From: Burkholderiales bacterium | GTDB taxonomy: Bacteria; Pseudomonadota; Gammaproteobacteria; Burkholderiales; SG8-39 | Direction of reading: 5' to 3' | DNA: 64,000 nucleotides | Assembly (NCBI GenBank): GCA_041558415.1 | Contig: JBFFEY010000013.1 | Span: 183-64,182, forward strand | Shown here: positions 875 through 21,595 of the stretch, piece by piece | Layout: the number at the start of each line of letters is the position of its first letter | Numbering within the stretch: the stretch's first letter is position 1 | Notes under the pieces: model-generated | The model's database searches: none | Told to the model about the DNA's origin: nothing | Seen by the model: the letters and a program-made list of their open reading frames with translations, nothing else | Made by a program: the position numbers and the translations under genes

Positions 875-2272
875 GTGAACAGCACTTCTGGCCGCAAAAT
901 CGTTGTCGTCGGCCACGGCGCCGCCGGCCTGTGCGCCGCGCTGTCAGCGCTCGAAACCGCGCGCGCGCGCAGGCTCGAGGTCCACGTCACGCTCATCGAG
1001 CGCGCGCCGCAAGCGGACTGCGGCGGCGGCAGCCGCTGGAGCCCGAGCAATATCCGCATGCGCGCGCCGCAGGCGATGGAGGACGGCTTCGTCGACGCCA
1101 TCCTGGCGCAGTCCGGCGGCCGGGCCGAGCGCGCCTACTTCGAGCGCCTCGCCTTGGAGGCGCCGGCCACCGCGCGCTGGCTGCAGGACAAGGGCGTCGA
1201 GTTTCACAGCCCGCCCTATTACCTCGCCAAGGGCCCGGCGCGCATCCAGCCGGTCGGCCCGATCGGCGCGATGTTCCACGCGCTGTGGCGCGCGGCGCAA
1301 TCCGCGGGCGTCGAGTTCCGCTACGCCTGCGCGCTGCGCCGGCTGCGGCTCGAAGCCGGCCGCGTCGCCGGCGTCGAGGTCGGACCCGGCGGCGAGACGC
1401 TGCGCGCAGACGCGGTGGTGCTCGCAAGCGGCGGCTTCGAGGGCAACGCCGAGATGCTGCGCGAGCACTTCGGGCCGGGCGGGGAATCGCTGCCGCCGAT
1501 CTCGCCGGGCAGCGCGTACAACGACGGCGCCGGCATCCGCGCCGCGCTCGAAGCCGGGGCGCGGCGCGCGGGCGACTGGAACGGCATGCACATCGAGCCG
1601 GTCGACGCGCGCAGCCAGGCCTCCGCGCCGGTGGTGCTGGTGTATCCCTATGGCATCGTCATCGACCGCGACGGACGGCGCTTCTTCGACGAGGGCGCCG
1701 GCCTGGTGCACGAGACCTGGGAGACCTTCGCCCGCGCGCTGCACTTCGCGCTTCCGGGGCGCGTCGCCTACGCGATCCTCGACGCCGCGCTGCTCGAGAT
1801 TCCCGGCTACGACCGCGCCATCCGCTCCGAGCGCCCCCCGCTCAGGGCGCCCTCGATCGCCGAGCTCGCCGCGCAGCTCGGCATCCCGGGCACGGCGCTG
1901 GCCGACACGGTCGCGGCCTACAACGCCGCCTGTGTCGGGGACGCGCGCCGCTTTGACGCGACGCGCGCCGACGGCCTGGCGACCGCGCCCGGGCTCGCGC
2001 CGCCCAAGTCCAACTGGGCGCGCCCGCTCACCCGCGCGCCGTTCCTCGCCTGGCCGCTGGTCGGCGCCATCGCCTACACCTTCGGCGGCCTAGCGACCGA
2101 CCCCGAAGCGCGCGTCATAGGCAACCAGGGCCCGCTACAGGGACTCTATGCAGCCGGAGAAATCACCGGACATTTCTACGGCACCGCGCCGAACGCGGTC
2201 GCCATGCTCAGGGCCCTCGTGTTCGGGCGTATCGCCGGGCGCAATGCGGTCGTCCTCGGCCAGGGCGATTGA
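875..2272 (+). CDS. FAD-dependent oxidoreductase (TcuA / fumarate-reductase-flavoprotein-like)
   Basis: 465-aa ORF with a GTG start. N-terminal dinucleotide-binding motif KIVVVGHGAAGLCAAL. C-terminal GLYAAGEITGHFYG segment typical of this flavoprotein family. Confidence 0.75.
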   Translation: MNSTSGRKIVVVGHGAAGLCAALSALETARARRLEVHVTLIERAPQADCGGGSRWSPSNIRMRAPQAMEDGFVDAILAQSGGRAERAYFERLALEAPATARWLQDKGVEFHSPPYYLAKGPARIQPVGPIGAMFHALWRAAQSAGVEFRYACALRRLRLEAGRVAGVEVGPGGETLRADAVVLASGGFEGNAEMLREHFGPGGESLPPISPGSAYNDGAGIRAALEAGARRAGDWNGMHIEPVDARSQASAPVVLVYPYGIVIDRDGRRFFDEGAGLVHETWETFARALHFALPGRVAYAILDAALLEIPGYDRAIRSERPPLRAPSIAELAAQLGIPGTALADTVAAYNAACVGDARRFDATRADGLATAPGLAPPKSNWARPLTRAPFLAWPLVGAIAYTFGGLATDPEARVIGNQGPLQGLYAAGEITGHFYGTAPNAVAMLRALVFGRIAGRNAVVLGQGD

Positions 2273-2382
2273 AGGGCGAAGCGGTTTTCTCGGCCCGTTC
2301 GGTCGTTCAGGCCGAGCCGACTCGCAGTCTTCTCGAATACTGAACAGGCGAAGGTCGGTGAGTGCCCGGCTTTGCAGGCAGC

Positions 2383-2472
2383 CTAGGCGATGGAGATCAG
2401 CGCGGCGAGGGCAACAACCACCGTCGGTACGGCCATGATCAGCGCGGTTTGAATGTCTTGTATGGCTTCCAT
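2383..2472 (-). CDS. Candidate 29-aa hydrophobic micropeptide (MEAIQDIQTALIMAVPTVVVALAALISIA)
   Basis: Below the track cutoff, found by hand. The ATG (cat 2470-2472) is preceded by GGAGGGAGCC on the minus strand, and the stop is TAG (cta 2383-2385). The C-terminal 20 residues would form one transmembrane helix. No homology evidence is available. Confidence 0.25.
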   Translation of the reverse strand: MEAIQDIQTALIMAVPTVVVALAALISIA

Positions 2473-2772
2473 GGCTCCCTCCGGTTCGATGCGGCTATGA
2501 CTGCACGATAGCCCCCGAGGCCGCTTCGGGTCAGCGAAGCATGCCGCCTCGTCGATGTGGAATATTCACGTTCGCTGATGCGCCGCAGCAAGTTCTGCGC
2601 TGCGGCAGGTGCACGCGGCCGCGGCGCTTCGCTGCTGAGGCAATCGACCGCTGCGGATGGGCGAAACGGGGTCACGAGCGGCGGGAACCGGCCAGAAGCG
2701 GTCATAGCCCGCCGCCTGATCATGCCGGAGTAATATCCGCGAACCGCCCGGCTTGACGAGGGGTTCGCGTAG

Positions 2773-4620
2773 GTGAGCAGAACGGACCAAAGACGACGAT
2801 TAGTTGCGATTCTGGCCGCCGACGCGGCCGGCTACTCGCGTCTGATGGCGGCCGACGAGGCCGCGACCGTGGCGGCGCTCGATGTTGCCCGAGGGGTATT
2901 CGGAAATCAGATCAAAGCGAACCAGGGTCGTGTCATCGACATGGCCGGTGATTCCGTGCTTTCAGTGTTCGAACTGGCGACGGGCGCGGTGACTGCGGCG
3001 CTCGCGATTCAGCACGACCTCGCGGCGGCCACGAAGGATGTACCGGAGGACAGGCGCATGCGCTTCCGGGTTGGTGTTCACCTCGGCGAGATCATTGAGA
3101 AGGCCGACGGCACTGTGTATGGGGATGGGGTCAATATCGCCGCACGTCTCGAAAGTCTGGCGGAGCCGGGCGGAATTACAGTGTCGGATTCGGTCCGCAA
3201 CGCGGTGAAGGGCAAGGTGGGCGCAACTTTCGATGACCTTGGAGAACAGACGGTAAAGAACATCGCCGAACCGGTGCGTGCCTATCGGGTCGGCGCCGAG
3301 GAAGGTACCGTGTCCAAGTCCTCTCCCGCTGGCGCAGAGATCGACCTGTCGCTGCCCGACAAGCCCTCGATCGCCGTTCTGCCCTTCACCAACATGAGCG
3401 GCGATCCCGAGCAGGAGTATTTCACCGACGGCATCAGCGAAGACATCATCACCGAACTGTCGCGCTTCCCGTCGCTCTTCGTCATCGCGCGCAATTCGTC
3501 GTTCACCTACAAAGGCAAGGCGGTCGACATCAAGCAGGTCGGCAGGGAACTCGGCGTGCGCTACGTCCTGGAGGGCAGCATTCGCAAGGCCGCGAACCGC
3601 ATTCGGGTGACGGCGCAGCTGATCGACACGCTGACCGGCAGCCACATTTGGGCCGAGAAGTACGACCGCGTGCTCGAGGATATTTTCGCGGTGCAGGAAG
3701 AAGTCACCGAATGCATCGTTGGAGCGATTGCGCCGCAGGTGAATGCCGCTGAGGCGCTGCGCGCACGGCGCCGGCCGGGTAGCTTGACGGGCTATGAACT
3801 TGGGGTACGCGCTCTTGCGCTCGCCAAAGAAAGCCAACAAAAGTCGGACGTGGCCGCGCGCAACGAGGCCCTGCGGCTGGGGCGCGAAGCGCTGACCCTC
3901 GACCCGGAGTCGGTGCAGGCTCTGGCGGCCATCGCGTGGGCGCAATGGCTGCACGTTGCCTGGCGCACCGCCGCGGATAGACATGCCGCTTGGCGCGAGA
4001 GCATGGACGCATTGATGAGGGGAATCGCCATCGAGCCGTCCAGTACCTTGCACGGCCAGAAAGCGTTGCTACTGGCGTTTGCTCCCAATGGCGGCGGATG
4101 GGACGAAGCGCGTGCCGAGGCGCGGTTGGCTTGGCAGATCAATCCGCAGGATTCGCTAGCCTTGAGTGCATGCGGTTGGGTCTTGGCTAATTCGGGAGAT
4201 CCGATCGAAGGCATCCGTTTGCTGGAGCGCGCGCTACGCATCAACCCGCGCGATCCATACGCGTTCATCACGTACAGCAACCTCGCGAGCGCGCACCTGG
4301 CGGCCCGCGACTACGCCAAGGGGCTTGAATGGGCACGGCGAGCCATCGGCACGGCTCCGGATAACGTCGACGCGTTCGTGCATTCGGCGGCGCTGTATGT
4401 TGGCCTTGGCGACATCGAAAAAGCCAAGTCCGCACTGGAGCGGGCACGCTCGCTCGCTCCCGAGTCCGTCCAGCACATGGTAGAAACCCGTACCAGGACG
4501 GAGCCGCACGACCCACGCAAGCTCCTTGACGGGGGAACGGAATTTCGCCGACGCAACAAGATGTTCCTTCGTATCGCTGCCGGTCTCGAGGACCCCAGCA
4601 AAGCGGACGCGCTTCGGTAG
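2773..4620 (+). CDS. Class III adenylate/guanylate cyclase domain protein with a TolB-N-like module and C-terminal TPR repeats (paralog 1)
   Basis: 615 aa. The cyclase core is LVAILAADAAGYSRLM ... RVIDMAGDSVLSVF ... GTVYGDGVNIAARLES. It is followed by IAVLPFTNMSGDPEQEYFTDGISEDIITELSRF and a TPR-like helical C-terminus. Confidence 0.85.
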   Translation: MSRTDQRRRLVAILAADAAGYSRLMAADEAATVAALDVARGVFGNQIKANQGRVIDMAGDSVLSVFELATGAVTAALAIQHDLAAATKDVPEDRRMRFRVGVHLGEIIEKADGTVYGDGVNIAARLESLAEPGGITVSDSVRNAVKGKVGATFDDLGEQTVKNIAEPVRAYRVGAEEGTVSKSSPAGAEIDLSLPDKPSIAVLPFTNMSGDPEQEYFTDGISEDIITELSRFPSLFVIARNSSFTYKGKAVDIKQVGRELGVRYVLEGSIRKAANRIRVTAQLIDTLTGSHIWAEKYDRVLEDIFAVQEEVTECIVGAIAPQVNAAEALRARRRPGSLTGYELGVRALALAKESQQKSDVAARNEALRLGREALTLDPESVQALAAIAWAQWLHVAWRTAADRHAAWRESMDALMRGIAIEPSSTLHGQKALLLAFAPNGGGWDEARAEARLAWQINPQDSLALSACGWVLANSGDPIEGIRLLERALRINPRDPYAFITYSNLASAHLAARDYAKGLEWARRAIGTAPDNVDAFVHSAALYVGLGDIEKAKSALERARSLAPESVQHMVETRTRTEPHDPRKLLDGGTEFRRRNKMFLRIAAGLEDPSKADALR

Positions 4621-5231
4621 CTTCGACAGTAGCTTTAGCTTCCGAATTTAGCGTTTTTTCGCCAACTCCTGGACGACCGCTTTGGGTCGGTTCGGGCCGG
4701 TTGGCGCAGGCTTCTAACGGCCAGGCGCCATCGTTGTCAGGCCTCGCCTGAGCGCACCCCGGGCGGCGCTTGTCGTTCTCGGTGTACGCAACGTGCGCGT
4801 CGCTCGGCGCGATACTTGCCGTAAAGCCACTTTTGTCCGGCGTGCCTGAAGGCATGCGCGTGACCCATCGTGGCAGAAACCATTGCCTAGCCATCCGCAA
4901 AAGCAGACGAACAGCGTCGGACTCGCCAAATCCAAGCGAGACGATAAAAGGCCCCCTAAACGCGTTCACAATCCGGTGCCCTTGTTCAGCTAGGTGAGGG
5001 TCGTCGGGGTCTCGTGCTCGAGACCCTGTTGCGATCTGGTGCAATTCGGCTGCTCTCTTGTGCTTCGGCCTATCGTAGTTATGCACCTCGCGGCACCCCA
5101 TCTGGACGGGATCCGCGAATCCCCAGTTGGCGTCCCAAATGTTATGGGCGCCCAATCTCGGCGCGGCAACGCACAGCGCGGCACGTCATCCGCGACTTGC
5201 ACGCCAAGACGCGCGCAACCGATCGCCTGAT

Positions 5232-5825
5232 TTATTCTTTCAGCTCGTTTGGAGCCCGAAATACCAGATTCACGAGGCCGAAGCGCACGGACAGCGCCAG
5301 TCCCGCGAGGATGAGGACGGCGAGAAGCGTCGCGCCGATTAGCGCAACACCGCTCCAGAACGCTACGCCCAGCCACAGCAGCGCCGGCACGAGCCCAGCA
5401 ATGACCGGTATGAGTGCGGCGAGCGCAACCGCTTGCAGCTTCTCCGAGCTGCGCCACGATTCCGCGACCGGTCGGCTCAGCCACGACGCGGGCGCAAGAT
5501 AGACGATCGCGCCGGCAAGCCAGAGCGTGAGCACGTAGCCGGTCCACAGACCGGCGGTCACGCGCCACGTCGACCCCCCATCGACGATATGCAGCCCGCC
5601 GATTCCCGCGGCCAACAGGACGACCGTGTTGACGATAAAAACGCTCCAATCGGGCAGGCCGCGGCGCCAGATTCCGCTTGCGGCGAGCCACAGTCCCGTC
5701 AACAACGACCCGAGATAGAGCCCCAGGCAGCGCTGACAGAGGGGCAGCGGCGTGCCGTCCACCACGAACACATGCTCGCGGCCGCAGATGAGCGAAAACA
5801 GGTAGTCGATGGATTCCATGATCAC
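5232..5825 (-). CDS. DUF2085-family polytopic membrane protein
   Basis: 197 aa with a CGREH...PLCQRCLGLY N-terminal Cys motif followed by several hydrophobic helices. Its ATG overlaps the upstream stop in ATGA at 5822-5825. Confidence 0.7.
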   Translation of the reverse strand: MIMESIDYLFSLICGREHVFVVDGTPLPLCQRCLGLYLGSLLTGLWLAASGIWRRGLPDWSVFIVNTVVLLAAGIGGLHIVDGGSTWRVTAGLWTGYVLTLWLAGAIVYLAPASWLSRPVAESWRSSEKLQAVALAALIPVIAGLVPALLWLGVAFWSGVALIGATLLAVLILAGLALSVRFGLVNLVFRAPNELKE

Positions 5826-7216
5826 TTGCGTGGCGACGCCGTCTTCGTCTCACCCACAGGGCTCGCCTCGATCAGGGGGATGGGCACGCGGGACAGCTGC
5901 CGGCCGTCCATCGAGAAAAAGACGATCGCGACGGCTCGTTTCGCTTTACTTGACACGAGCTTGAATGCAACCCGTTTCGAGTCAGGCGTGAACGTCGGCT
6001 GCACGAGAAAGTTTTGATCGCTCTGCCAGGTCGCGAGCAGTCGCCCCGACCTGTCCGTGAATTGCACGATATTGCCTGCCGAGACCACCAGGTAACGTCC
6101 GTCGGGCGATGCGGCCAGCTCACCCAAATTGTCTCCGTGATGCTTGCCGACGGGTGCGAGCGTGCGACTCTCGAGCAGCGCATCGTCGGCAGAATAAGTC
6201 CACAGGCGTGGTCCTTTGTCCCCGGACTCGATCTTCTCGAGCACGGCGAGCGTCTGGTTGTCGATCCATGCGAGCCCGCTCGGGGAAGCCTTCCCCGGCA
6301 ATGGCACTTGGATTGCCTGGCTGCCGTCCGTTGCCGAGAGCTTTACCGATTGCGGGTCATCTACCGAGAGCGATGCAAGCTGGCGGCCGTCAGGCGACAG
6401 AGGGCCAGGCCATCCGTACGAGAACAGTTGCAGCTTGTCTTCGGGGACGCTCGCGACGATCCCAAACGGGAACACGTAGGCAAAGATCTGCCTGCCATCC
6501 GGCAAAAACTCCGGTCGGGAAAGCAAATACGTATAGACGTAGCTTACATCGGCATCCTTTTCGACAGCCGAATCGACGGTCACCTTCGTCATGACAGCTC
6601 CGCTCGCCGCGTCGCGCACGATGACTTCCGCCGGAATGACGACGCCGCGCCGCCCGAGTTTTTCGATCGCCTTCTTTCCTTCGGGCGACAGGTCCACAGC
6701 GATCGCGCTTTCATGCACCGGGCGTGGCGCGCGGTCGATTGTGTCGTGCGGTGCAAGGAACATCCACTGCGTGTCGATTTTCAGCTGGTCCTTGTCTGCG
6801 GGCATGCCCTGTCCGCCGGGCTCGCGTTTCCGCTCTCGCTCCAAGGCGACGAGACGCATGAACGCCGCGGCGCGGTCCAGATCCGCCTTGGTCGGCAATG
6901 CGATTCGCAGATAGGCGAGCCGCGCACCATCGCGGCTGTAACCAGGGCCGGTCAGCATGTGCGTCGAAGTGCGCTCGAGCTCGCGCAGCTCGCCGTCCTT
7001 GCCCAGCACCAGCAGTCGATAAGTCTTTTCTCCCCTTGAGAGATTTTTTAGGTCATATGGATCCATGACCGTGAAGGCGAGGTCTCCGGTCGGTGAAAAG
7101 CTCATCGGGCTCTCCACGCAGGCGAGGATGTGCCACAGCACCACGGCGCTGGCCAAGACCACGGCGCCGACCGCCTTCCATCCAAGCTTCGATCTTTGGG
7201 TCACTGTTCGTACCAT
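5822..7216 (-). CDS. Membrane-anchored PD40/TolB-like beta-propeller protein
   Basis: Track ORF 5822..8110 trimmed to the in-frame ATG at 7214-7216 (MVRTVTQRSKLGWKAVGAVVLASAVVLW, one transmembrane helix), which sits behind GAGGAGG. Repeated PD40-type motifs are present: SRDGARLAY, LPDGRQIFA, SPDGRQLA, SPDGRYLV, TPDSKRVAF. The discarded upstream part is Arg/Ala/Pro-rich and overlaps the radical SAM gene. Confidence 0.75.
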   Translation of the reverse strand: MVRTVTQRSKLGWKAVGAVVLASAVVLWHILACVESPMSFSPTGDLAFTVMDPYDLKNLSRGEKTYRLLVLGKDGELRELERTSTHMLTGPGYSRDGARLAYLRIALPTKADLDRAAAFMRLVALERERKREPGGQGMPADKDQLKIDTQWMFLAPHDTIDRAPRPVHESAIAVDLSPEGKKAIEKLGRRGVVIPAEVIVRDAASGAVMTKVTVDSAVEKDADVSYVYTYLLSRPEFLPDGRQIFAYVFPFGIVASVPEDKLQLFSYGWPGPLSPDGRQLASLSVDDPQSVKLSATDGSQAIQVPLPGKASPSGLAWIDNQTLAVLEKIESGDKGPRLWTYSADDALLESRTLAPVGKHHGDNLGELAASPDGRYLVVSAGNIVQFTDRSGRLLATWQSDQNFLVQPTFTPDSKRVAFKLVSSKAKRAVAIVFFSMDGRQLSRVPIPLIEASPVGETKTASPRK

Positions 7217-8754
7217 CGCGGCCTCCTCGAGTGGAGCGCGGGCGAGGGGTTGAGCGGGTGAAGCAGCGCCCGCGACAAGGTCTTCAGGGCAACGCGGGTC
7301 CCATGGAGCCAGAGCGCCCAATAGACGCGCCGCTTGCGCCGATCGGGCTGCCGGAAAAGGAATTGCCATGCGCGCACCAGGCGGCGGCGATCGAGCCTGA
7401 ACATCATCCGCCAGTAGATCGACTCCTGGCGCCTGAGATTTAGCGCTTCGGTCTCGCACACAGGGGTGTGGAAGTTGTACGTGGCCAGGCTCGTGCCGGC
7501 CACGCGTCCCGCGCGCTTTGCCTCCTCGGCCGCCCGCGTCCCGGGGTTCGGAGTCAGCGGCGCCAGGAAGCAGTAATCCATCTGCATGTCGTAGTCGAGG
7601 GCGGCAAGGTGCTCGAGGTCGTCCTCCGTGTCGCCGGGCAGCCCGTAAATGGTGGTGCCGATGGTGAAGACTTCCGGATACCGCTCGCGAAAGATGGCGA
7701 ACGCCGCGCGACAGATTTCCGCGTCGTTGTGATGCTTGTTCAACGCGGCGAGTCCGGGCGCATCGTCGCGTTCCACGCCGATCATGACCTGCCGCAGGCC
7801 GGCGCGAACCATCTTTTCGAGGACGCCGAGCTTCTGATCGCGCACCACGCAATCCGCGCGCATCCAGGCCGTGTGCAGCGTCCGGGGCCGACCCCGCGCG
7901 TCCATCAGCTTGGAGCGCAACATCAGATCCGCCCAACGGTCCGACCAGCGCGGGGAGACATTGAAGGTCGGGTCCACCCAGCCGAAGGTCCGCCGGCCGA
8001 ACTCCCGGTTGAGGCGCAGCACGTTGGCGTAGCTGCGCTCGGGTGACTGCGTGCGATAGCACGGGCGCACTTCTCCCGAGCGGCCCTGCGGCTGGCCCAT
8101 CTGCTTCCACAGGATGCAGAACGCGCAGCGATCGATGCAGCCCCTCGAGTGCTCGATGCTGACCAGCGCCGGATGATTGCGCGAGCCGCGCCCGTAGCTC
8201 TGCATGTCGAGCAGGTCGTACGCCGGGAACGGCAGCGTGTCGAGATCCTCGATCAGCCTTCGTGGCGGCGTCACATGCACGCCGCCGTCACCGTCGCGGA
8301 ACGCGATCCCCTCGATCTTCGACCACGCGCTTCGATTGCCGGCGTTGCGCAGGAGTTCGACGAAGGTCGCTTCGCCTTCGCCTCGCACTACGACATCGAC
8401 GTTCGAATCAGCGAGTGCGGCTTCCAGCGCGTGCGCGTAATAGGGCCCGCCCGCCACGACCAGGCATTCGGGGTGGAGCGCCTTGACCAGCGCGGCCGCG
8501 CGAAATCCCTCGTGCGCGGAGACCGTCTCTTCACCGATCCCGAGCACGTCGATGCGGCGCGCAGCGAGCATGCGTTGCAGCGTCCGCCAACCGCACTTAC
8601 GCGCCGGCGCGTCGATGACCTCGACCTCGATCTCCGGCATCTGGGCGCGCGCCGCTGCGGCGAGGCACAGCAAGCCGAGCGGCTGCCAGAATGCGGATGT
8701 CTCGCTGTTAAACGGCCAGACAAATCGCGGCGGGCGGAGAAGCGCGACCCGCAT
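7201..8754 (-). CDS. B12-binding-domain radical SAM enzyme
   Basis: 517 aa. The N-terminal Rossmann-like region (IDVLGIGEETVSAHEG...LVVAGGPYY...VDVVVRGEGE) is typical of cobalamin-binding rSAMs. The CxxxCxxC cluster motif is HSRGCIDRCAFC. No SPASM-like Cys-rich tail is present. Confidence 0.85.
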   Translation of the reverse strand: MRVALLRPPRFVWPFNSETSAFWQPLGLLCLAAAARAQMPEIEVEVIDAPARKCGWRTLQRMLAARRIDVLGIGEETVSAHEGFRAAALVKALHPECLVVAGGPYYAHALEAALADSNVDVVVRGEGEATFVELLRNAGNRSAWSKIEGIAFRDGDGGVHVTPPRRLIEDLDTLPFPAYDLLDMQSYGRGSRNHPALVSIEHSRGCIDRCAFCILWKQMGQPQGRSGEVRPCYRTQSPERSYANVLRLNREFGRRTFGWVDPTFNVSPRWSDRWADLMLRSKLMDARGRPRTLHTAWMRADCVVRDQKLGVLEKMVRAGLRQVMIGVERDDAPGLAALNKHHNDAEICRAAFAIFRERYPEVFTIGTTIYGLPGDTEDDLEHLAALDYDMQMDYCFLAPLTPNPGTRAAEEAKRAGRVAGTSLATYNFHTPVCETEALNLRRQESIYWRMMFRLDRRRLVRAWQFLFRQPDRRKRRVYWALWLHGTRVALKTLSRALLHPLNPSPALHSRRPRWYEQ

Positions 8755-9282
8755 GCCTTGAGCTCCCGAGCCGAGAGGGCAATCTACGAACGATTGTCGC
8801 GCCGACCTACCGGGTCAACTTGACCTGCGTCAACGGCAAATGACGAAAGAGCGATTTCGCGCTCGGCATCGCCGTGAGGTCAACGATCGCGATCCGGTCG
8901 GCCTCACCTCCTGCAGCTTCGGCACGTTGGCGACCTTCATTGCCGTTCTCACGGAATTTGCGGTTCCCGCGTGACCGCAAAACGCCATCTCGACGAGACC
9001 ACGAAACTTCGTTTGCGGTAAATCGCAAATCCTTAACGGCACCGGAATACCGCCCGAAACAAGCCCTCGGTATCCACGTCCCCGGCGATCTCAATGTCTG
9101 CTATAGATCGGAAAGACCTGGTATGGCCGGGCCCCTACCGGCCATTAGCAGACGTTCACGAATCCATTTTTCGGCCACGCCATCAGCGCACAGATAGAAT
9201 CGCGGCACAAATCATCCCGGCTCACCCGACTAGCCTCGGTATAGACGACTAAGGGACTTGTCTTTACTTTGAGCTCAATGCG

Positions 9283-9657
9283 CTACGGCAGAATATAGAA
9301 ATACCCACTCTTCGCGACCAAGCCCCAGGTCTCAATTCGGTCGCCATTCTTGCGCCACTCGTCGCACCTTTCTAGAGCCCAGTCTTCGTTCTTGACGCAA
9401 ACGGTGTCGCCTTTGAGCCACCACTTACCCTTGACAACGTGTCCTGATACGCCGTTGCTCCAGTAGACCTCTCGGGTGCCGTTCCGGTACCAAGTCACGA
9501 GGTATGAGACGTTGAATCCTGTCGAATACCCAGCGGAGAAAAGCATGTTCGACGTAAGTTGTTTCAGTTCCGCGTTCGTGAGCTTCTTGCCTGAATCGGC
9601 GGAGACAGGATCAACTACTAGCAGTAAGGCCATCACAAAGAAGAGTGAGCGATACAT
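9283..9657 (-). CDS. Small secreted protein of unrecognised family (paralog A)
   Basis: 124 aa with signal peptide MYRSLFFVMALLLVVDPVSA. It shares the layout L-x2-ELKxL ... GKWWLKGDTVC ... ERC with ORF 10424-10834. G+C is low: hand counts of four 60-nt lines within 9301-9660 give 43-58 percent. Confidence 0.65.
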   Translation of the reverse strand: MYRSLFFVMALLLVVDPVSADSGKKLTNAELKQLTSNMLFSAGYSTGFNVSYLVTWYRNGTREVYWSNGVSGHVVKGKWWLKGDTVCVKNEDWALERCDEWRKNGDRIETWGLVAKSGYFYILP

Positions 9658-9906
9658 ATTCCCCTCCTTTTAATGTAGAGGAATCAATTTGCATTGGTAA
9701 GAAATGCACGCACGGCCACAAGGGCCGGAGACGCTCCGCCTGGCGAGCTGATGTGCGTCGAATTGCTGCCCGTAAGGCGGAAACCCAATTTCGCGCAGGG
9801 CAAGGGCCTTCGCAATAACTAGCGAGGCGCGCGCCCCAACCGCTTCCCTACGCGCCAGCACGTTCATGGGGCCCGAAGCGTGTCGAGTTCGGGCGAGCCT
9901 TTCGCG

Positions 9907-10272
9907 TCAGCGGTTCGGGTCGTAGTCGTAAGTGGCCTCGGCCCGCGGTGTTTGCGATCCGTACCACGCCGCAAGGTTGCGCACATCCGCATCGGATATT
10001 TGCTCCCCGATCACCTCGTGGGCGTCGTTCGACCGCTTGCCGGTCTTGTAGTCGCGCATACTCTTGATGAAGTACGGCTGCGGTTGGGCGGAAATACGCG
10101 GCGTGTACCCAAATTTATTGGTTTTGTTCCCGTTTCCGTCCGGCCCGTGACACAGCAGGCAACCCCACTTGTCGGCCAGCTTCTTCCCGACCTCCGCATC
10201 TCCACTGTCTTGTCCCAACGCAATGGGCGATACCGTGAAACAAGCCAGGACTATCAGAACGTTCCTTTTCAT
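9907..10272 (-). CDS. Monoheme class I c-type cytochrome (c4/c5-like), periplasmic
   Basis: Track ORF trimmed to MKRNVLIVLACFTVSPIALG (signal peptide) behind GGAGGA. Heme motif CLLCH. A distal Met candidate sits in FIKSMRDYK. The C-terminal DVRNLAAWY is typical of this class. Confidence 0.8.
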   Translation of the reverse strand: MKRNVLIVLACFTVSPIALGQDSGDAEVGKKLADKWGCLLCHGPDGNGNKTNKFGYTPRISAQPQPYFIKSMRDYKTGKRSNDAHEVIGEQISDADVRNLAAWYGSQTPRAEATYDYDPNR

Positions 10273-10423
10273 AGCTGTCCTCCTTAAGCGGTTGGCGCTT
10301 TGCAACGGCCTGCGGAAGAAATCCGAACCGCGTCCATAGCCGCGGTCGCGGACCTCTGGCGCGCAGAATCGGTCGCTCGATTGCCTCGATCGTCCGCAAG
10401 AGCAGGTGGGCGAAAGCCGGACA

Positions 10424-10834
10424 CTACTTGAGGATTGTGAATGGGAATGTTGTCACGCCGTCGACAGGGACCATCTCGTAGCGACCAGGGCCTTTGCCGG
10501 CGACGCGATAGCACCGCGCGTTGTAGCCGCCGCTCTTGCCCCACCACGATAGCTCGTAGCACACGCTGTCGCGGTCGAGCTTCCAGCGCCCGGTATCCAT
10601 ACAAGAGCCGCTCGCCTCTTGCCGCATACACACCGATCCATCCGATTTCCATTCCCAGTAAAGGTACCCTCCTGACACGACATTCTGTTCTTGCCACGTA
10701 TGCCCCGATACCAGGCCACTGAGCGCTTTCGCGTCGAGCGTCTCCGCAGTCACTGGCGCGCATAGCGAGAACGCCGCAAATGCGAGGAGCAAGGCGGCGC
10801 CGAAATGCCCTTTTAGAACATTTTCGGATTTCAT
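10424..10834 (-). CDS. Small secreted protein of unrecognised family (paralog B)
   Basis: Trimmed to MKSENVLKGHFGAALLLAFAAFSLCAPVTA behind AAGGAGG. It shares the GRWKLDRDSVC ... ARC pattern with ORF 9283-9657. Confidence 0.65.
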   Translation of the reverse strand: MKSENVLKGHFGAALLLAFAAFSLCAPVTAETLDAKALSGLVSGHTWQEQNVVSGGYLYWEWKSDGSVCMRQEASGSCMDTGRWKLDRDSVCYELSWWGKSGGYNARCYRVAGKGPGRYEMVPVDGVTTFPFTILK

Positions 10835-11298
10835 CTTGACCTCCTTGGAACGCAAAGGAACCAAGCGGCACCGCGGACGCTGCGGTTTGGAAACAACACC
10901 GGGATGTCGCGAGCGGCCCGCCTACCGCACCGCAGGCGGTACACAGCTGTACCTCGAGAACGGTCCCTGCGCAGGGCCGAGGCCGAAATTGCGAACCAAC
11001 TTGGACGACGGGCGATTTCGGCAGTTGCTGCGGCCGCACCTTGGTGGCGCGAGGCCTTAATTTCCCGACTTCTTTACACCTGTCGGATCAGACGATCTTG
11101 ATCCAGATCAGGACTTGCGTTCGCCCGGGGCAATCCGAAGCAAACGACCGTCTTCAGCGAGGCCAAAATCACTCGTCGTACGGCTGACTGCTTCGGGTCG
11201 ATAGGCGCCATCTCCCCTGCCCCAAAAGCAGACGCTCAGTGGCGCCTGATTTGACGGCAGACTGCCGTCGGCCGCGCCCGCGACACGGCCCGCAACGC

Positions 11299-12498
11299 CT
11301 ACTGCGGATGCCGCAGATCGCGCTGCGCGAGCGCCACCACGGCGCCGAGGGCAAGCAGACCGGCGGAACCCGCGAGCCCGATCTGCAGCGAGCCCGAGCG
11401 GTCGGCGAGCCAGCCGATCGCCACCGGACCCGCGATCTGCCCGGCCGCGAACACGACGGTGAAGGTGGCGATCGCCGATCCCCAGGCGGGTCTGGGCAGC
11501 GCGCGCTTGATGAAGCTGCCGATCGAAGACGGCGCGCTGAACATTGCGATGCCGAACAGCGCCGCGGACAGCAGCATTGCCGCCGCGTGCGTCGAGGCGA
11601 GCGGCAACGCGGCGCCGGCCGCGAGCACGATCATCACCGCGGCGAGCGGGCGGCCGCCGGGCCAGTGCTCGGCCGGCTTGCGCCACACGAGCGGCGCAAG
11701 CAGGGTCGCGAGCCCGAGCGCGAACCACACCGCGATCACGGTCGCGGTGCTGGCGCCATTCAGGCGCATCCACGCGATGACGAAGGTCATGTAGCCGATG
11801 TAGCCGAGCGCGAACAGCATGTAGGACGCGAGCTCGGCGGCGAACGGCCGCAGCGTCCAGCGCGCCTCGCCCGCCATCTTCCCGGGCTCGGCGATGCCCC
11901 ATGCGGACCAGGCCGCCGCCACGCTCATCAACAGGCTCGCGTAGCCCATGCCGCGCCAGGCGAGCGGCCATGAGGCGCTGCCCTGTGCTTCCAGCAACAG
12001 CGGCACGGCGACCCCCGAGAGCATCAGGCCGATGCCGCCGCCTGCGAAGTAGATCGCGATCGTCGTGGTGGCGAGCTGTGGGCGCCGCGCAAAGATGTTG
12101 CCGGAAAGCGCACCGCCACAGATGAATACGGCCGCCCCGCCGACACCCGCCAGCACGCGGACCGCCATCAGCGCCTCGAACTCGCGCACCCAGCCGGTCG
12201 CGGCGATCGCCACCGACGTGACCAGCATTCCCCAGCCATAGAGCGCGCGGTTGCCCAGGCGCGCGACCAGCGCGCGTGTCAGCAGCGCACCGAGCAGGTA
12301 GCCAAAGGCATTGACGGTGTTGATCGCGCCCGCCTGCGAATAGCTCCAGTGCAGATCGCTGCGCATCGCGGGGAGGATGAGGGCGTAGGCGAAGCGCGCA
12401 AACGCGTTCGACACCGCCGGGCCGAAGGACAGCAGAAACGCGACCAGCAGCCCGCGCAACAGGGTGATTTCCCGAGGATCGGTGCGCACGGACGCCAT
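11299..12498 (-). CDS. YbfB/YjiJ-type MFS transporter
   Basis: Track ORF 11299..13329 trimmed to MASVRTDPREITLL. GPAVSNAFARFAYALILPAMRSDLHWSYSQAGAINTVNAFGYLLGA is characteristic of the YbfB/YjiJ subfamily. The protein is about 12 transmembrane helices of hydrophobic sequence. Confidence 0.75.
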   Translation of the reverse strand: MASVRTDPREITLLRGLLVAFLLSFGPAVSNAFARFAYALILPAMRSDLHWSYSQAGAINTVNAFGYLLGALLTRALVARLGNRALYGWGMLVTSVAIAATGWVREFEALMAVRVLAGVGGAAVFICGGALSGNIFARRPQLATTTIAIYFAGGGIGLMLSGVAVPLLLEAQGSASWPLAWRGMGYASLLMSVAAAWSAWGIAEPGKMAGEARWTLRPFAAELASYMLFALGYIGYMTFVIAWMRLNGASTATVIAVWFALGLATLLAPLVWRKPAEHWPGGRPLAAVMIVLAAGAALPLASTHAAAMLLSAALFGIAMFSAPSSIGSFIKRALPRPAWGSAIATFTVVFAAGQIAGPVAIGWLADRSGSLQIGLAGSAGLLALGAVVALAQRDLRHPQ

Positions 12499-12630
12499 CT
12501 TAGCGGTTGCGATCGGCACGCCTGGACGCACCGCCGATACGCGTCGGCGACGCGGAACAGCTAAGATCGGCGCGACGCGATGCGTCTTTCTCCCGACAGC
12601 GTGCAATCCGCCGCAAAGGACCGAAGCGAC

Positions 12631-13332
12631 ATGACCGCCCTCACCCGCGCCGACCTCGAAGCGCTCGCCCAGTGGGACACGCCCACGATCTGCAACGGCC
12701 TCGAGCTGCTCGACGCCAAGCACCGCAGCACCGGCTTCACCACGCAGCACATGGTCTGCCTCGACCCCGCGCTCAAGCCGATCGTCGGCTACGCGCGCAC
12801 GGCGACGATCCAGGCCACGCTGCCGCCCGCCGGCGACGCGGAAGCGGTGCGTGAAATGCGCGCCCACTACTACGCGCAGGTCGCCGAGCAGCCGCTGCCG
12901 TCGATCGCGGTGCTGCAGGACCTCGACACCGAGCCGGGCTTCGGCGCGTTCTGGGGCGAGGTCCAGACCACGGTTCACAAGGGGCTGGGCTGTCTCGGGG
13001 CGGTCACCAACGGCTCGTTCCGCGACCTCGACGCCTGTGCCAAAGGCTTCCAGATCCTCGGCGGCAAGGTCGGCCCGAGCCATGCCTGGGTGCAGCTGGT
13101 CGACATCGCCTGCGCGGTGAACGTGTTCGGCATGGCGGTGAAGCCGAACGACATCGTGCACGCCGACCGGCACGGCGCGGTGGTGGTACCGGCAGACTGC
13201 GTGAAGCGCCTGCCGGCCGTGATCGACCTGCTGACGCGGCGCGAAGCGGTGATCCTCAAGGCCACGCGCGCGCCCGGTTTCAACATCGAAGTGCTGAAAA
13301 AGGCGATCGCCGACTCGGCGGAGATCCACTGA
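12631..13332 (+). CDS. RraA-family protein (RraA / HMG-aldolase-like fold)
   Basis: ORF 12580..13332. I prefer the ATG at 12631 (MTALTRADLEALAQWDTPTICNGLE), but 12580 is also possible. Size and sequence are RraA-like. The stop overlaps the next gene's ATG (ATGA at 13329-13334). Confidence 0.6.
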   Translation: MTALTRADLEALAQWDTPTICNGLELLDAKHRSTGFTTQHMVCLDPALKPIVGYARTATIQATLPPAGDAEAVREMRAHYYAQVAEQPLPSIAVLQDLDTEPGFGAFWGEVQTTVHKGLGCLGAVTNGSFRDLDACAKGFQILGGKVGPSHAWVQLVDIACAVNVFGMAVKPNDIVHADRHGAVVVPADCVKRLPAVIDLLTRREAVILKATRAPGFNIEVLKKAIADSAEIH

Positions 13333-14303
13333 TGAAACGCAAGGTTCTCGTCATCCAGGGCCTGCACCCCGAGGGGCTGCGCCTGCTCGAAGGGCGCGAC
13401 GACGTCGTGCCGGTGGTGCTCAACTCGAACGACGAGCAGCAGATCATCGCAGCGGCGCGCGAGGTCGAGGCAATCACGGTGCGCACCGCGCGCATCACGC
13501 GCGCGGTGATCGAGGCCGCGCCGAACCTGAGCATCGTCGCGCGCCACGGCGTCGGCTACGACGCGGTCGACGTGCCGGCGCTCACCGCGCGCGGCATCCC
13601 GCTGGCGATCGCGCCGCAGTCGAACATGGTCTCGGTCGCCGAGCACGTCATGTTCATGCTGCTCACCCTGGCCAAGGAAGCGCCGTACTACGACGCCATG
13701 ACGCGCAGCGGCGATTGGCGCGAGCGCTGGAACATCCGCGGCTTCGACCTCGCCGGCAAGAAGCTGCTGGTGATCGGCTTCGGCCGTACCGGTTCGCGCG
13801 TCGCGCAGCGGGCGCGGGCCTTCGACATGCAGGTCCATGCCTGCGACCCCTACATCGACGAGGACCTCATCCGCGCCGCCGGCTGCACGCCGGTCGCCGA
13901 CTTCCGCGCCGCGCTGCCGCAGATGGACGCGGTGAGCGTCAACACGCCGCTCAGCGACGAGACGCGGCATATGTTTTCCGCTGCCGAGTTCGCCGCCATG
14001 CCCTCGCATGCGGTGATCGTCAACTGCGCGCGCGGCGGCATCATCGACGAAGCGGCGCTCCATGCGGCGCTCAAGGCGAAAAAGATCCGCGGCGCCGGCA
14101 TCGACGTGTTCGAAGAGGAACCGAGCCCGGCGAGCAATCCGCTTTTCACGCTCGAGAACCTGATCGTCTCGCCGCACATCGCGGGTGTCACGGTCGAATC
14201 GACGATCCGCATGTCGACGCAGACCGCGCAGAACGTGCTCGACCGGTTCGACGGCCGGCTCGACCCCGACGTCGTCGTCAATCGCGAGGTGCTGAGGGCG
14301 TAG
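13332..14303 (+). CDS. D-isomer-specific 2-hydroxyacid dehydrogenase family (PGDH-like)
   Basis: 323 aa. NAD-binding motif LLVIGFGRTGSRVA. Catalytic region VNCARGGIIDE ... SPHIAG. Confidence 0.85.
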   Translation: MKRKVLVIQGLHPEGLRLLEGRDDVVPVVLNSNDEQQIIAAAREVEAITVRTARITRAVIEAAPNLSIVARHGVGYDAVDVPALTARGIPLAIAPQSNMVSVAEHVMFMLLTLAKEAPYYDAMTRSGDWRERWNIRGFDLAGKKLLVIGFGRTGSRVAQRARAFDMQVHACDPYIDEDLIRAAGCTPVADFRAALPQMDAVSVNTPLSDETRHMFSAAEFAAMPSHAVIVNCARGGIIDEAALHAALKAKKIRGAGIDVFEEEPSPASNPLFTLENLIVSPHIAGVTVESTIRMSTQTAQNVLDRFDGRLDPDVVVNREVLRA

Positions 14304-15780
14304 CGCGCTCGTCGCCGAGCAGGCGCTGCAGCGCTGCCGCCTGCTCGTTCAGCTCATCGATGTTGCGCGCGAGCAGGAGAAAATGCAGGCCGGTGCCCTG
14401 CTCCAGGCCGCCGGGCGTGAGCAGCACGACGCCCGTATCGGTGCTGCCGCGCCGGTACAGCAGGCCGCGCAGGCCGCGCAGCGCCTGCGACAGATCGCGC
14501 GGCGGGTTCGACAGGCTGGTGCGCTGCATGATCATGAACGCGCGTCGCCCCCAGTCGCCGAGCAGCCGGTTGGCGAGGGTCATCGGGATCGACGTTCCGC
14601 CCCAGCGCCCGTTGCACTCGATCCAGTGCAGCGCCGCGCCCTCGAAGGCTTCGCCCGCGATCACCGCGTCGAAGCTGCAGCGGCCGAAGTAGCCCAGGCG
14701 CTGGAACAGCACGCCGAGCTGCAGCGCCTCGTCGGCCAGGCGCTGGCGCCACGCCGCGGGCACGCTGCTCGGCACCGCGCCGACGAACTCGCCGCCGCTG
14801 CCCTCCACCACCTGGTCGAACACGCCTTCGACCTGCGGCAGACCCGCCTCGCGGCGCGGAATCCACAGCTGCACCGAGGGGCTGCCAAGCACGGCGCAAT
14901 CCCACACGCCGACCATGAGGGGAAAGCCCGCGTCCCAGCCCAGGTTGCCGAGCAGGCGCAGCAGCCGGCGGCGCAGCCCCCCCAGCCGCAGGCCGCGCAC
15001 GCGCTCGGCGTCGAGCACCAGGTTGCCGGCCGAGCCGGCGCTGTCGGGCACCTTGATCACCACCCGCGCATGGCGCCGGGCGAGCGCGGCGACGCGGCCG
15101 GTGAGCGCCGCCGGTTCGAAGGCGTGGTAGCTGGGCGGCAGCGCCGTGTCGCCGAGCAGCTGCTGCACGCAGCCCGCGAACCACAGCTTGTCGTTGACGC
15201 GGCGCGTGAGGCGCGGCGGCGGTGCGGCGACGCTGACCCGCGCACCGCTTTGCGCGGCGACCTTTGCGGCGAGCGTCCAGGCCTGCCCGGCACCGATGTA
15301 GGGCACCAGCGTCAGCCGCCCGTGCCGGCGCGCGGCGTCGACGATAGTGGCGAAGGCCTGCGCGTCCTGCGCGCAGCGTTGCGCGAGCGAGCCGGTGCGC
15401 GCCCCGCGCGCCGCGCCCGCGACGCCGATGACCTGCGCCGCGCCGAGCCCGAGCGTATCGCGGCAATACGCCTCGAACACCGGACTGCGTTCACCGCCGA
15501 TCAGGACGAAATCGCCTTCGCCGGCGAGCAGCAATGCGCGGTACTGCAGGCTGGCGTCACCGCGGCGCTCGAACAGCGTGATTTCGGCGTGGTCCTCGAA
15601 CAGCAACGCCGGGCCGTCATCCAGGCCAGCCGTCACATCGCTGCCGAAGGCCGCGCCCGAGGCGAGCGCCGGCTCGTCGGCCAGCAGCGCTTGCGCCAGG
15701 CGGTCGATGCGATCGAGGTCCTCCGGCTCCAGTCGGACATGGAGGTGTTCGACGATCGGGATCGAGGAACGCGTCTTCAT
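14278..15780 (-). CDS. ATP-grasp-fold ligase with a long N-terminal pre-ATP-grasp region (possibly PGM1-type peptide ligase-like)
   Basis: Track ORF 14278..16782 trimmed to MKTRSSIPIVEHL. RVVIKVPDSAGSAGNLVL (ATP-grasp Lys region), QVVEGSGGEFVGAV, and the metal-binding E-x-N in HWIECNGRWGGTS. The subfamily assignment is tentative. Confidence 0.6.
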   Translation of the reverse strand: MKTRSSIPIVEHLHVRLEPEDLDRIDRLAQALLADEPALASGAAFGSDVTAGLDDGPALLFEDHAEITLFERRGDASLQYRALLLAGEGDFVLIGGERSPVFEAYCRDTLGLGAAQVIGVAGAARGARTGSLAQRCAQDAQAFATIVDAARRHGRLTLVPYIGAGQAWTLAAKVAAQSGARVSVAAPPPRLTRRVNDKLWFAGCVQQLLGDTALPPSYHAFEPAALTGRVAALARRHARVVIKVPDSAGSAGNLVLDAERVRGLRLGGLRRRLLRLLGNLGWDAGFPLMVGVWDCAVLGSPSVQLWIPRREAGLPQVEGVFDQVVEGSGGEFVGAVPSSVPAAWRQRLADEALQLGVLFQRLGYFGRCSFDAVIAGEAFEGAALHWIECNGRWGGTSIPMTLANRLLGDWGRRAFMIMQRTSLSNPPRDLSQALRGLRGLLYRRGSTDTGVVLLTPGGLEQGTGLHFLLLARNIDELNEQAAALQRLLGDERATPSAPRD

Positions 15781-15924
15781 GGGCCACAGCGCAGCCGCGC
15801 GGATTGTGCCCGCGGCCCCGACGGCGGGCAATGCGGGCGCAACCATCGCCTGCGGAACGGCCGCGAAGGCGGCAGCCGTCCCAAGGTATATTGCGCCGGA
15901 TCGATCCCTGGCGCACGACGAACG

Positions 15925-16803
15925 ATGATCAACTACCAGGCCCTCAAGAACCGCCACTTCCCCGACATCGTGCAAACCTACGTCGAGCGCGACACGATGT
16001 TGTATGCGCTCGGCATCGGGTTCGGCCACGACCCGATGGACGAGCGGCAGCTGCAGTACGTCTACGAGAAGAACCTGCGCGCGCTGCCGACGATGGCCGC
16101 GGTGCTCGGCTACCCGGGCTTCTGGGTCAAGGCGCCCGACACCGGCATCGACTGGGTGCGGGTGCTGCACGGCGAGCAGTCGATTCGCATCCACAAGCCC
16201 CTGCCGGTCGCCGGCACGGTGGTCGGCAAGCTGCGCCTCAAGGCGATCGTCGACAAGGGCAAGGACCGTGGTGCGCTGCTGCTGCAGGAGCGCGAGGTGT
16301 TCGACAGGAAGAGCGGCACGTTGCTCGCCACCGTCGACTCGCTCAGCTTCGGGCGCGGCGACGGCGGCTTCAGCGAGGTCGAAGGCAACGGCCCGAAGGG
16401 CGGCGATCCTGCGCCGCCGACACCGCCGGCGACTCCGGATACGCCGCCCGACATCGTCTGCGACCTGCCGACGCTGCCGCAGGCGGCGCTGATCTACCGG
16501 CTGTCGGGCGACTACAACCCGCTGCATGCCGAGCCGGCCGTGGCGACGGCGGCGAAGTTCCCGCGCCCGATCCTGCACGGGCTGGCGACTTACGGCGTGG
16601 CCGGCCATGCGATCCTCAAGAGCTGCTGCGACTACGACGCCGCACGGCTGAAGTATCTGTCGGTGCGCTTTTCCGCACCGGTCTACCCGGGCGAGACGAT
16701 CCGCACCGAAATCTGGCGCAGCGGCGAGCGCGTTCAGTATCGCGCGCGGGTCCTGGAGCGCGACGTCGTGGTGCTGTCGCACGGCGTCGCGGAGGTCGCA
16801 TGA
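15925..16803 (+). CDS. MaoC-like (R)-specific enoyl-CoA hydratase, double hot-dog
   Basis: The in-frame ATG at 15925 (MINYQALKNRHFPD) lies inside artefactual ORF 14383..16803. A Pro-rich linker is followed by YRLSGDYNPLHAEP and ILHGLATYG. Confidence 0.8.
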   Translation: MINYQALKNRHFPDIVQTYVERDTMLYALGIGFGHDPMDERQLQYVYEKNLRALPTMAAVLGYPGFWVKAPDTGIDWVRVLHGEQSIRIHKPLPVAGTVVGKLRLKAIVDKGKDRGALLLQEREVFDRKSGTLLATVDSLSFGRGDGGFSEVEGNGPKGGDPAPPTPPATPDTPPDIVCDLPTLPQAALIYRLSGDYNPLHAEPAVATAAKFPRPILHGLATYGVAGHAILKSCCDYDAARLKYLSVRFSAPVYPGETIRTEIWRSGERVQYRARVLERDVVVLSHGVAEVA

Positions 16804-18548: not shown

Positions 18549-18550
18549 AC

Positions 18551-19774: not shown

Positions 19775-19782
19775 GGCACGAA

Positions 19783-21593: not shown

Positions 21594-21595
21594 GC

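Follow-up and report, generated by a model that had tools for sequence, protein, structure and literature searches.

Three consecutive genes on the minus strand of the 64,000-nucleotide stretch of Burkholderiales DNA analyzed here (the window, to which all position numbers refer) define a new, well-delimited group within the class B radical S-adenosylmethionine (SAM) enzymes, distinguished by unusual obligate partners. The first gene (7201–8754) encodes a radical SAM protein of 517 residues with a cobalamin-type domain, the second (5822–7216) an exported PD40 β-propeller of 464 residues, and the third (5232–5819) a DUF2085 membrane protein. To judge from the sequence comparisons, this trio is one self-contained, co-inherited, and co-translated operon.

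The three genes had been singled out as a set in a reading of the window made from its sequence only, and the three families do co-localize in other genomes. Among loci that extend at least 2.3 kb downstream of the radical SAM gene, both partners lie beside it in 50 of 51, or in 36 of 37 lineages after dereplication at 95% nucleotide identity; the exception, L037, has no detectable DUF2085 gene. Two gene orders occur. The order radical SAM–PD40–DUF2085, found in 29 loci, is that of clade 1, with radical SAM proteins 57–68% identical to that of the window, and the order radical SAM–DUF2085–PD40, found in 21, is that of clade 2, at 45–48% identity. Unrelated open reading frames are inserted between the partners in L020, L026, and L064. 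Clustering of all open reading frames from 93 loci recovered only the trio and no fourth conserved gene.

The surroundings of the trio vary widely. On long contigs with close homologs, the radical SAM–PD40–DUF2085 order is found amid unrelated flanking genes, and even a relative with 84% identity in the radical SAM protein has flanks quite unlike those of the window. A scan of species-representative genomes located the radical SAM gene followed by PD40 in metagenome-assembled genomes (MAGs) of Betaproteobacteria, Thiobacillaceae, Planctomycetaceae, Phycisphaerae, and Planctomycetota, with DUF2085 also present in both loci whose contigs reach far enough, and a metagenome scan supplied 80 further loci. 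The trio has been kept together in dozens of Planctomycetota lineages as well as in the betaproteobacterial genome of the window. Because the loci were gathered by similarity of the radical SAM protein, they are related by descent and part of the co-occurrence is inherited. Nevertheless, shuffled gene order, varied flanks, and occurrence in two phyla argue that the linkage is under selection.

The genes are tightly joined. The radical SAM stop codon (TGA, 7203–7201) falls 16 nucleotides inside the propeller gene (overlap at 7201–7216), whose ATG (7216–7214) follows a Shine-Dalgarno-like GAGGAGG (7228–7222) that is read through as radical SAM codons; these coordinates, reported in the sequence-only reading, were verified, and the same overlap is present in Planctomycetota loci. 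In clade 1 the AGGAG and the ATG are embedded in the codons for S-R-[RK]-P-x-W-Y, and the junction TCN-AGG-AGN-CCN-NNA-TGG-TAC-GAN is kept at the nucleotide level across phyla (L001–L004, L012–L015); thus both the 16-nucleotide overlap and the AGGAG, made of rare AGG codons, are conserved. Clade 2 uses CGC-AAA codons for the same residues, without AGGAG, and the next gene is DUF2085, with an ATGA common to the radical SAM stop and the DUF2085 start. Since clade 2 encodes the same residues without AGGAG, the codons chosen in clade 1 provide a ribosome-binding site, and the “MVR” with which the propeller sequences begin owes its conservation to the gene overlap.

At the second junction, an ATGA had been claimed at 5822–5825. 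The sequence there is in fact GTGA, comprising the TGA stop of the propeller gene (5824–5822) and a possible GTG start (5825–5823) that would yield a DUF2085 protein of 197 residues. An in-frame ATG two codons further on (5819–5817) gives a product of 195 residues, in agreement with called homologs. The two genes overlap by 4 nucleotides if GTG is used and are separated by 2 nucleotides if ATG is used, so that the packing is tight either way.

The radical SAM enzyme and its partners

Membership in class B is indicated by the presence of both diagnostic parts: a B12-binding domain of the Rossmann type at residues 22–135 (8350–8691; PF02310, 42.8 bits against a cut-off of 32.1, E value 5.5e-11) and a radical SAM core (PF04055, 47.2 bits against 29.5) with the [4Fe–4S]/SAM motif CxxxCxxC, here CIDRCAFC at residues 206–213 (8116–8139). 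There is no SPASM Pfam match and no Cys-rich tail after the SAM cluster, so that the domain architecture deduced earlier from the sequence, a cluster motif preceded by a cobalamin-type domain and lacking a SPASM-like tail, stands. Conservation within the family is unusually strong, alignment columns of 33 sequences being on average 65% identical. Cys206, Cys210, and Cys213 are invariant in the alignment; beyond these cluster ligands, only Cys97 is invariant and Cys348 nearly so. Both ends of the protein carry hallmarks. An N-terminal motif, RPPR-x-x-WPFNSE-x-S-x-FWQPLG, is invariant in the bacterial relatives and is found in archaeal ones too, and a tail of the form [YH]-S-R-[RK]-P-x-W-Y-[DE]-x, ending at the last residue (LHSRRPRWYEQ in the window, 7204–7236), is conserved in clades 1 and 2. 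The last ~80 residues are very basic, as would fit binding to a membrane surface.

The enzyme reaches no NCBIfam equivalog cut-off and falls in no characterized family. Its best match is BchE (TIGR02026), in an alignment that covers nearly the full length of the protein (residues 16–480) but scores 126 bits for the window, 196 for clade 2, and 160–176 for archaeal relatives, against a cut-off of 481. HpnJ (TIGR03471) is the second-best match for the window protein (101 bits against 578), and HpnR (TIGR04367; 74 bits against 650) is the fifth-best, though third for clade 2. All NCBIfam equivalog matches score far below their cut-offs, so that a place within a characterized clade, which would have counted against the sequence-only reading, was not found. 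Among solved structures, the nearest in sequence is 9ccb, the glutamine methyltransferase MgmA/QCMT of methyl-coenzyme M reductase (MCR), with an E value of 6.6e-10 over residues 100–413. The protein is best described as a predicted cobalamin-type enzyme of an uncharacterized family most like BchE.

Two further genes recur near that of the enzyme. A second B12-binding radical SAM gene lies near the trio, at varying positions, in four Planctomycetota loci only (L002:21–1007, L003:6143–7606, L043:9889–11202, and L047:1433–2704); its product is ~24% identical to the trio enzyme in L002 and L003, and scores best in NCBIfam against HpnJ (~80 bits). Directly upstream of the radical SAM gene in 15 clade 2 loci is a gene for a protein of ~507 residues that seems to have a signal peptide and matches no Pfam family (e.g., L070:2670–4238); this gene was not found in clade 1.

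Archaeal relatives of the enzyme, from Methanosarcinales and Woesearchaeota, are ~36% identical to it. They keep both terminal hallmarks, with a tail of the form ...RKPxWYD, and have neither a PD40 nor a DUF2085 partner in the loci examined. Retention of the hallmarks without the partners suggests that the chemistry of the family does not depend on them. It also leads us to reject the idea that the C-terminal tail is a trio-specific element for docking of partners: the tail is kept in partner-free relatives and therefore belongs to the enzyme family itself.

The archaeal operon neighbors include a UbiA prenyltransferase, an Lgt-like protein, a glycosyltransferase of family GT2, a NAD_binding_4 reductase that resembles acyl reductases, and more B12-binding radical SAM enzymes. 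In a Methanosarcinales MAG, the Lgt-like gene (L006:7150–7908, minus strand; PF01790, E value 2.9e-17) adjoins an operon (L006:8001–15054) that contains the radical SAM relative, the NAD_binding_4 reductase, the GT2 gene, two more B12-binding radical SAM genes, and a further radical SAM gene. The Lgt-like gene is worthy of note because archaea are stated to lack Lgt homologs (PMC12462473). At L008:11615–12415, a UbiA-family prenyltransferase and a PHP-domain protein share an apparent operon with the radical SAM relative and a truncated B12-binding radical SAM gene. These contexts point to a lipid-like or prenylated substrate.

The second protein of the trio had been described as a PD40 propeller on a plain single-pass anchor. 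The propeller assignment is upheld by a match to PF07676, which is weak (24.3 bits against a cut-off of 20.9), and by an AlphaFold2 model with about seven blades (predicted local distance difference test (pLDDT) score 86.4, predicted template modeling score 0.85) and helical inserts at residues 110–131, 178–187, and 222–232. The anchor must be redescribed, since the N-terminus carries a lipobox-like signal with an invariant Cys. A Foldseek search returned 818 matches with E values of 0.001 or less, and all 50 of the matches listed are propeller-containing proteins. They are of a generic kind, including designed seven-bladed proteins, NirN, TolB, and methylamine dehydrogenase, and for this reason the attempt to derive a specific function from the fold was dropped.

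Although the propeller family is divergent (mean column identity 36%), its N-terminus is well conserved, more so than any other part. A basic n-region and a hydrophobic stretch lead to a nearly invariant Cys motif, so that in the window the signal or anchor extends to Cys33 of the sequence ILAC (7118–7216). The window motif, W-H-I-L-A-C33-V-E-S-P-M-S-F, conforms to the clade 1 pattern L-W-[HQ]-[IVL]-[LM]-A-C-[VTI]-E-S-P-M-[SA]-F, in which the Cys is present in 34 of 34 sequences; the clade 2 pattern is L-I-Y-[VI]-[LM]-A-C-V-x-S-P, with the Cys in 17 of 17. Compared with the lipobox, [LVI][ASTVI][GAS]C, the motif has the Cys and an appropriate Ala at position −1, but Leu or Met at −2 and His, Gln, or Tyr at −4 lie outside the canonical sets. 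The Cys may be lipidated, exposed by signal peptidase I cleavage, or retained within an uncleaved anchor. The first PD40 blade begins 2–3 residues past the Cys with no tether. This would bring the propeller right up against the membrane, and its N-terminal signal is predicted to hold it to the periplasmic surface of the inner membrane. On one 9.5-kb Phycisphaerae contig, neighboring PD40 paralogs with consecutive locus tags (P0156 and P0157) both carry the N-terminal Cys motif, and a Phycisphaerae radical SAM homolog (P0094) comes from a contig of equal length (9480 bp); some lineages may have duplicated the propeller.

Assignment of the third protein to DUF2085 was correct: the PF09858 score is 34.1 bits for the window protein and rises to 53.1 bits in clade 2, the gathering threshold being 25. 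The AlphaFold2 model (pLDDT 90.5) consists of a short helix, a β-hairpin, and five long helices, and has no solved structural relative in a Foldseek search of the PDB (best E value 0.21). Invariant residues include Cys12, Arg30, and Cys31, and Tyr35 is also conserved; His77, Asp80, Trp85, and Arg86 are common to both clades, as is an [RK][RK]GLP loop. Cys28 gives way to Gly or Asp in part of the family. Counts of Lys plus Arg, averaged over 35 sequences, are 2.1, 2.9, and 4.0 for the regions predicted to lie inside and 1.3, 0.3, and 0.2 for those predicted to lie outside, and by the positive-inside rule they favor an N-out/C-in topology. In that topology, the cluster of Cys, His, Asp, and Arg residues would be exposed on the periplasmic side beside the propeller Cys, and the basic loops, including [RK][RK]GLP, would lie in the cytoplasm on the side of the radical SAM enzyme. 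The idea that DUF2085 might correspond to the archaeal lipoprotein-lipidation enzymes AliA and AliB was dropped after comparison by description only; the AliA/AliB papers describe arCOG02177 as a seven-helix protein with conserved Glu/Asp and Arg, and do not mention DUF2085.

Possible roles of the trio

Tentatively, and with rather less assurance than would make it probable, we favor the idea that the trio forms a membrane-spanning module, with the radical SAM enzyme working on a hydrophobic substrate in the membrane from the cytoplasmic side and its two partners working on the periplasmic one. The enzyme would carry out a radical methylation or rearrangement of a membrane-embedded hydrophobic small molecule, for which a lipid, a prenylated compound, and a tetrapyrrole-like compound are candidates. 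DUF2085 would be the membrane partner that receives or presents the modified molecule, and the propeller would bind or use the product on the periplasmic side. A small hydrophobic substrate is favored because BchE, HpnJ, and HpnR are among the best profile matches and because partner-free archaeal relatives occur in lipid and prenyl operons; the archaeal context thereby gives indirect support to a substrate that may be membrane-bound or periplasmic.

Several observations weigh against such a module. In the bacterial loci examined, the trio has no associated gene for a substrate, cofactor, or lipid pathway. PD40 propellers usually bind peptides or proteins, not lipids, and the Foldseek search gives DUF2085 no transporter-like or other known fold. 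The similarity to BchE is weak, at 126–196 bits against 481. The archaeal contexts amount to three loci only, at ~36% identity, and the enzymes in them could be paralogs with other substrates, while the topology of DUF2085 derives from the positive-inside rule only. Finally, conservation in the propeller peaks at the N-terminal signal and first blade, a pattern that protein maturation explains more simply.

Maturation of a partner protein is indeed the main rival explanation, although we regard it as unlikely. The target of the radical SAM enzyme might be a residue in the conserved N-terminus of the propeller precursor, altered prior to export, or one in a loop of DUF2085 exposed to the cytoplasm; precedents are Mmp10 and MgmA/QCMT, which act on MCR. 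Such a system would fit the strict co-occurrence of the trio in the absence of a precursor peptide or any further conserved gene, and also the translational coupling of the enzyme, which in clade 1 is with the propeller and in clade 2 with DUF2085. The near-invariant N-terminal motif of a propeller with only 36% mean column identity, the [RK][RK]GLP loop of DUF2085 kept in both clades, and the fact that the nearest solved structure by sequence is a protein glutamine methyltransferase (9ccb, E value 6.6e-10) are all consistent with this idea. The archaeal relatives, however, share the N- and C-terminal hallmarks without having either partner to modify, and the 9ccb match is weak, with BchE and HpnJ the stronger profile matches. 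In addition, the conserved propeller motif is located where the membrane helix ends on the outer side, or past that point, and after insertion a cytoplasmic enzyme could not reach it. The same motif has prompted consideration of a private tailoring of lipoproteins, in which DUF2085 would process the propeller signal and lipidate or cross-link its Cys, and the radical SAM enzyme would supply or modify the lipid donor. We consider this decidedly unlikely. It would account for a motif, [IVL]-[LM]-A-C, that is invariant and yet non-canonical at −2 and −4, for the start of the first blade 2–3 residues after the Cys without a tether, and for the invariant Cys12, Arg30, and Cys31 and the shared His77 and Asp80 of DUF2085, all predicted to be periplasmic; an Lgt-like gene does adjoin the radical SAM relative in one archaeal locus. 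Yet neither in sequence nor in fold does DUF2085 resemble Lgt, Lsp, Lnt, or sortase-type enzymes, Cys28 is Gly or Asp in some of its members, a catalytic role for its conserved residues is purely inferred, and the propeller signal might be handled by the usual Lgt/Lsp or by signal peptidase I. A specific form of the proposal, highly unlikely in our estimation, is a private anchoring pathway parallel to Lgt/Lsp/Lnt, in which DUF2085 would be a new kind of membrane enzyme that, by means of its Cys, His, Asp, and Arg residues on the periplasmic side, recognizes the W-H-x-L-A-C signal of its dedicated propeller and links the propeller Cys to an unusual lipid made or modified by the radical SAM enzyme in the cytoplasm.

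Supply of cobalamin is another role that the partners might play: the propeller would capture a corrinoid in the periplasm and DUF2085 would carry it across the membrane for loading of the radical SAM enzyme, which has a cobalamin-binding domain. The partners bear some likeness to BtuG, a propeller lipoprotein of Bacteroides that captures corrinoids, and to BtuM, a small Cys-containing transporter, the one partner being a lipoprotein-like propeller and the other a small membrane protein in which Cys residues are conserved. We assign only a very slight likelihood to this role. No cobalamin riboswitch was detected upstream, no solved structure resembles the DUF2085 model and BtuM is absent from the matches listed, and the fold matches of the propeller are generic; an uptake system tied strictly, one to one, to just one B12 enzyme would be unusual, and the archaeal relatives work without these partners. 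Adjacency without function, whether by inherited synteny or by chance, can draw on the common descent of loci gathered by radical SAM similarity, which accounts for part of the co-occurrence. It is effectively excluded by the finding of both gene orders, two phyla, and a full trio in nearly all dereplicated lineages, by flanks that are unrelated even at 84% identity in the radical SAM protein, and by the conservation of overlapping frames with an embedded ribosome-binding site.

Full-text literature searches on DUF2085/PF09858 and on radical SAM, Planctomycetes, B12-binding, and β-propeller found no published description of the trio and no paper linking the three families, in keeping with the initial impression that no characterized pathway combines them. 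Two 2026 reviews, of B12-binding radical SAM and of lipid-modifying radical SAM enzymes, do not mention the trio, and no function is recorded for DUF2085 in its Pfam entry or in the papers found. Uncharacterized radical SAM families are common. Of the more than 220,000 members of the cobalamin-dependent radical SAM enzymes, only a few dozen have been named with assigned reactions (PMC12931638, a 2026 review). The linkage described here is solid and testable, and a clear boundary, high conservation, and two obligate partners make this family tractable. The fixed genetic partnership is a first functional lead for DUF2085. The trio is concentrated in sediment Planctomycetota, a group of unusual envelope and lipid biology, and appears to have moved into a betaproteobacterial lineage. 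Identification of the substrate would add either a new modification of a lipid or cofactor or a new type of protein maturation at the membrane.

Genomic setting and history

The non-coding region upstream of the operon (8755–9282) presumably contains the promoter and 5′ untranslated region. It has no match to the sigma-70 consensus, and only the last ~100 nucleotides before the radical SAM start match the closest relative, L001, at 81% identity. The sequence-only reading had noticed no precursor-peptide gene here, and comparison across lineages likewise finds no conserved short open reading frame upstream; thus there is no adjacent precursor peptide of the kind that would mark a pathway for ribosomally synthesized and post-translationally modified peptides. 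A cobalamin or other riboswitch upstream is rejected, as no Rfam family or riboswitch was matched in the window at the gathering score or in 8600–9500 at E values up to 1. An anti-phage defense system is rejected as well, there being no PADLOC defense-model match for any of the three proteins. Two terminator-like hairpins lie 3′ of the operon (4906–4955, minus strand). They are weak pattern matches, and the count of such hairpins is no higher than in shuffled sequence.

The content of guanine plus cytosine (GC) is 61–65% at 2–12 kb in the window, compared with 66–72% elsewhere. This dip (2000–12000) spans the trio, an adenylate cyclase gene, and small upstream open reading frames, and may represent an acquired island. 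At 90% identity or more, the flanking CoA-transferase of the window groups with proteins from Betaproteobacteria SG8_39 and from Burkholderiales MAGs, and the 90%-identity cluster of the radical SAM protein includes one named from a Betaproteobacteria MAG. Outside a group of ~84–92% identity, the nearest branches of the radical SAM enzyme are at most 71% identical, and those named by organism are all from Planctomycetota. The betaproteobacterial flanks, the Planctomycetota affiliation of these outside branches, and the dip in GC together suggest that the trio may have been transferred between phyla.

Other genes of the window lie on either side of the trio. Upstream, two minus-strand genes (9283–9657 and 10424–10864) encode small secreted proteins of 124 and 146 residues that look paralogous, have no Pfam match, and share W-x-L-x-x-D-x-V-C around a conserved Cys pair; they flank a mono-heme cytochrome c gene (9907–10305). 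Genes of matching size (124 and 121 residues) are found upstream in near-identical contigs and are absent from other trio loci. On the plus strand, a gene that converges on the 3′ end of the trio (2773–4620) encodes a 615-residue protein in which an adenylate/guanylate cyclase domain is combined with a weakly TolB_N-like stretch and, at the C-terminus, tetratricopeptide repeats. Further away (12580–22486) is a block of acyl-CoA metabolism unrelated to the trio, with an RraA-like aldolase, a 2-hydroxyacid dehydrogenase, a MaoC dehydratase, an AidB-like acyl-CoA dehydrogenase, a family III CoA-transferase, a Zn-alcohol dehydrogenase, and an enoyl-CoA hydratase.

Comparison with known systems

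BchE, the anaerobic oxidative cyclase of Mg-protoporphyrin IX monomethyl ester, resembles the trio enzyme in combining an N-terminal B12 domain with a CxxxCxxC core, and acts on a hydrophobic, membrane-associated substrate. Unlike the trio enzyme, which scores far below the BchE cut-off, it has no PD40 or DUF2085 partners. No bch genes occur in the flanks of the trio loci examined, and the trio is carried by Planctomycetota and the betaproteobacterial genome. The hopanoid enzymes HpnJ, HpnR, and HpnP are likewise class B radical SAM proteins, and they act on membrane lipids; here too the HpnJ and HpnR scores are far below the cut-offs, and the neighborhoods inspected hold no hopanoid (hpn/shc) genes. 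MgmA/QCMT (9ccb) and Mmp10 show that class B enzymes are able to modify a specific partner protein, but their similarity to the trio enzyme is very weak and their targets are soluble MCR subunits of methanogens.

The heme d1 pathway offers a parallel in layout. There, the cytoplasmic radical SAM enzyme NirJ acts on a hydrophobic cofactor, and the periplasmic propellers NirF and NirN then bind an intermediate; the succession of a cytoplasmic radical SAM enzyme and a periplasmic propeller resembles the arrangement that we propose for the trio. NirN (6rtd) is among the top Foldseek matches of the trio propeller (E value 1.1e-10, template modeling score 0.44), in what is a generic propeller match. 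The systems differ in that NirJ is not of the B12 type, the d1 propellers have eight blades rather than about seven, and no nir genes are linked to the trio.

TolB shares PD40 repeats and an envelope location with the trio propeller, and TolB structures are among its Foldseek matches. The trio propeller nevertheless scores only 13 bits against the TolB profile (TIGR02800, cut-off 343), has no TolB_N match, and differs in blade count, and the conserved N-terminal Cys signal is specific to the trio propeller family, unlike TolB. The third protein shares with DUF2085 (PF09858) the motif C-x-Q...LP-x-C-x-R-C-x-G-x-Y. Within DUF2085, the trio subfamily is distinct, with five helices and a tie to the radical SAM enzyme and its propeller.

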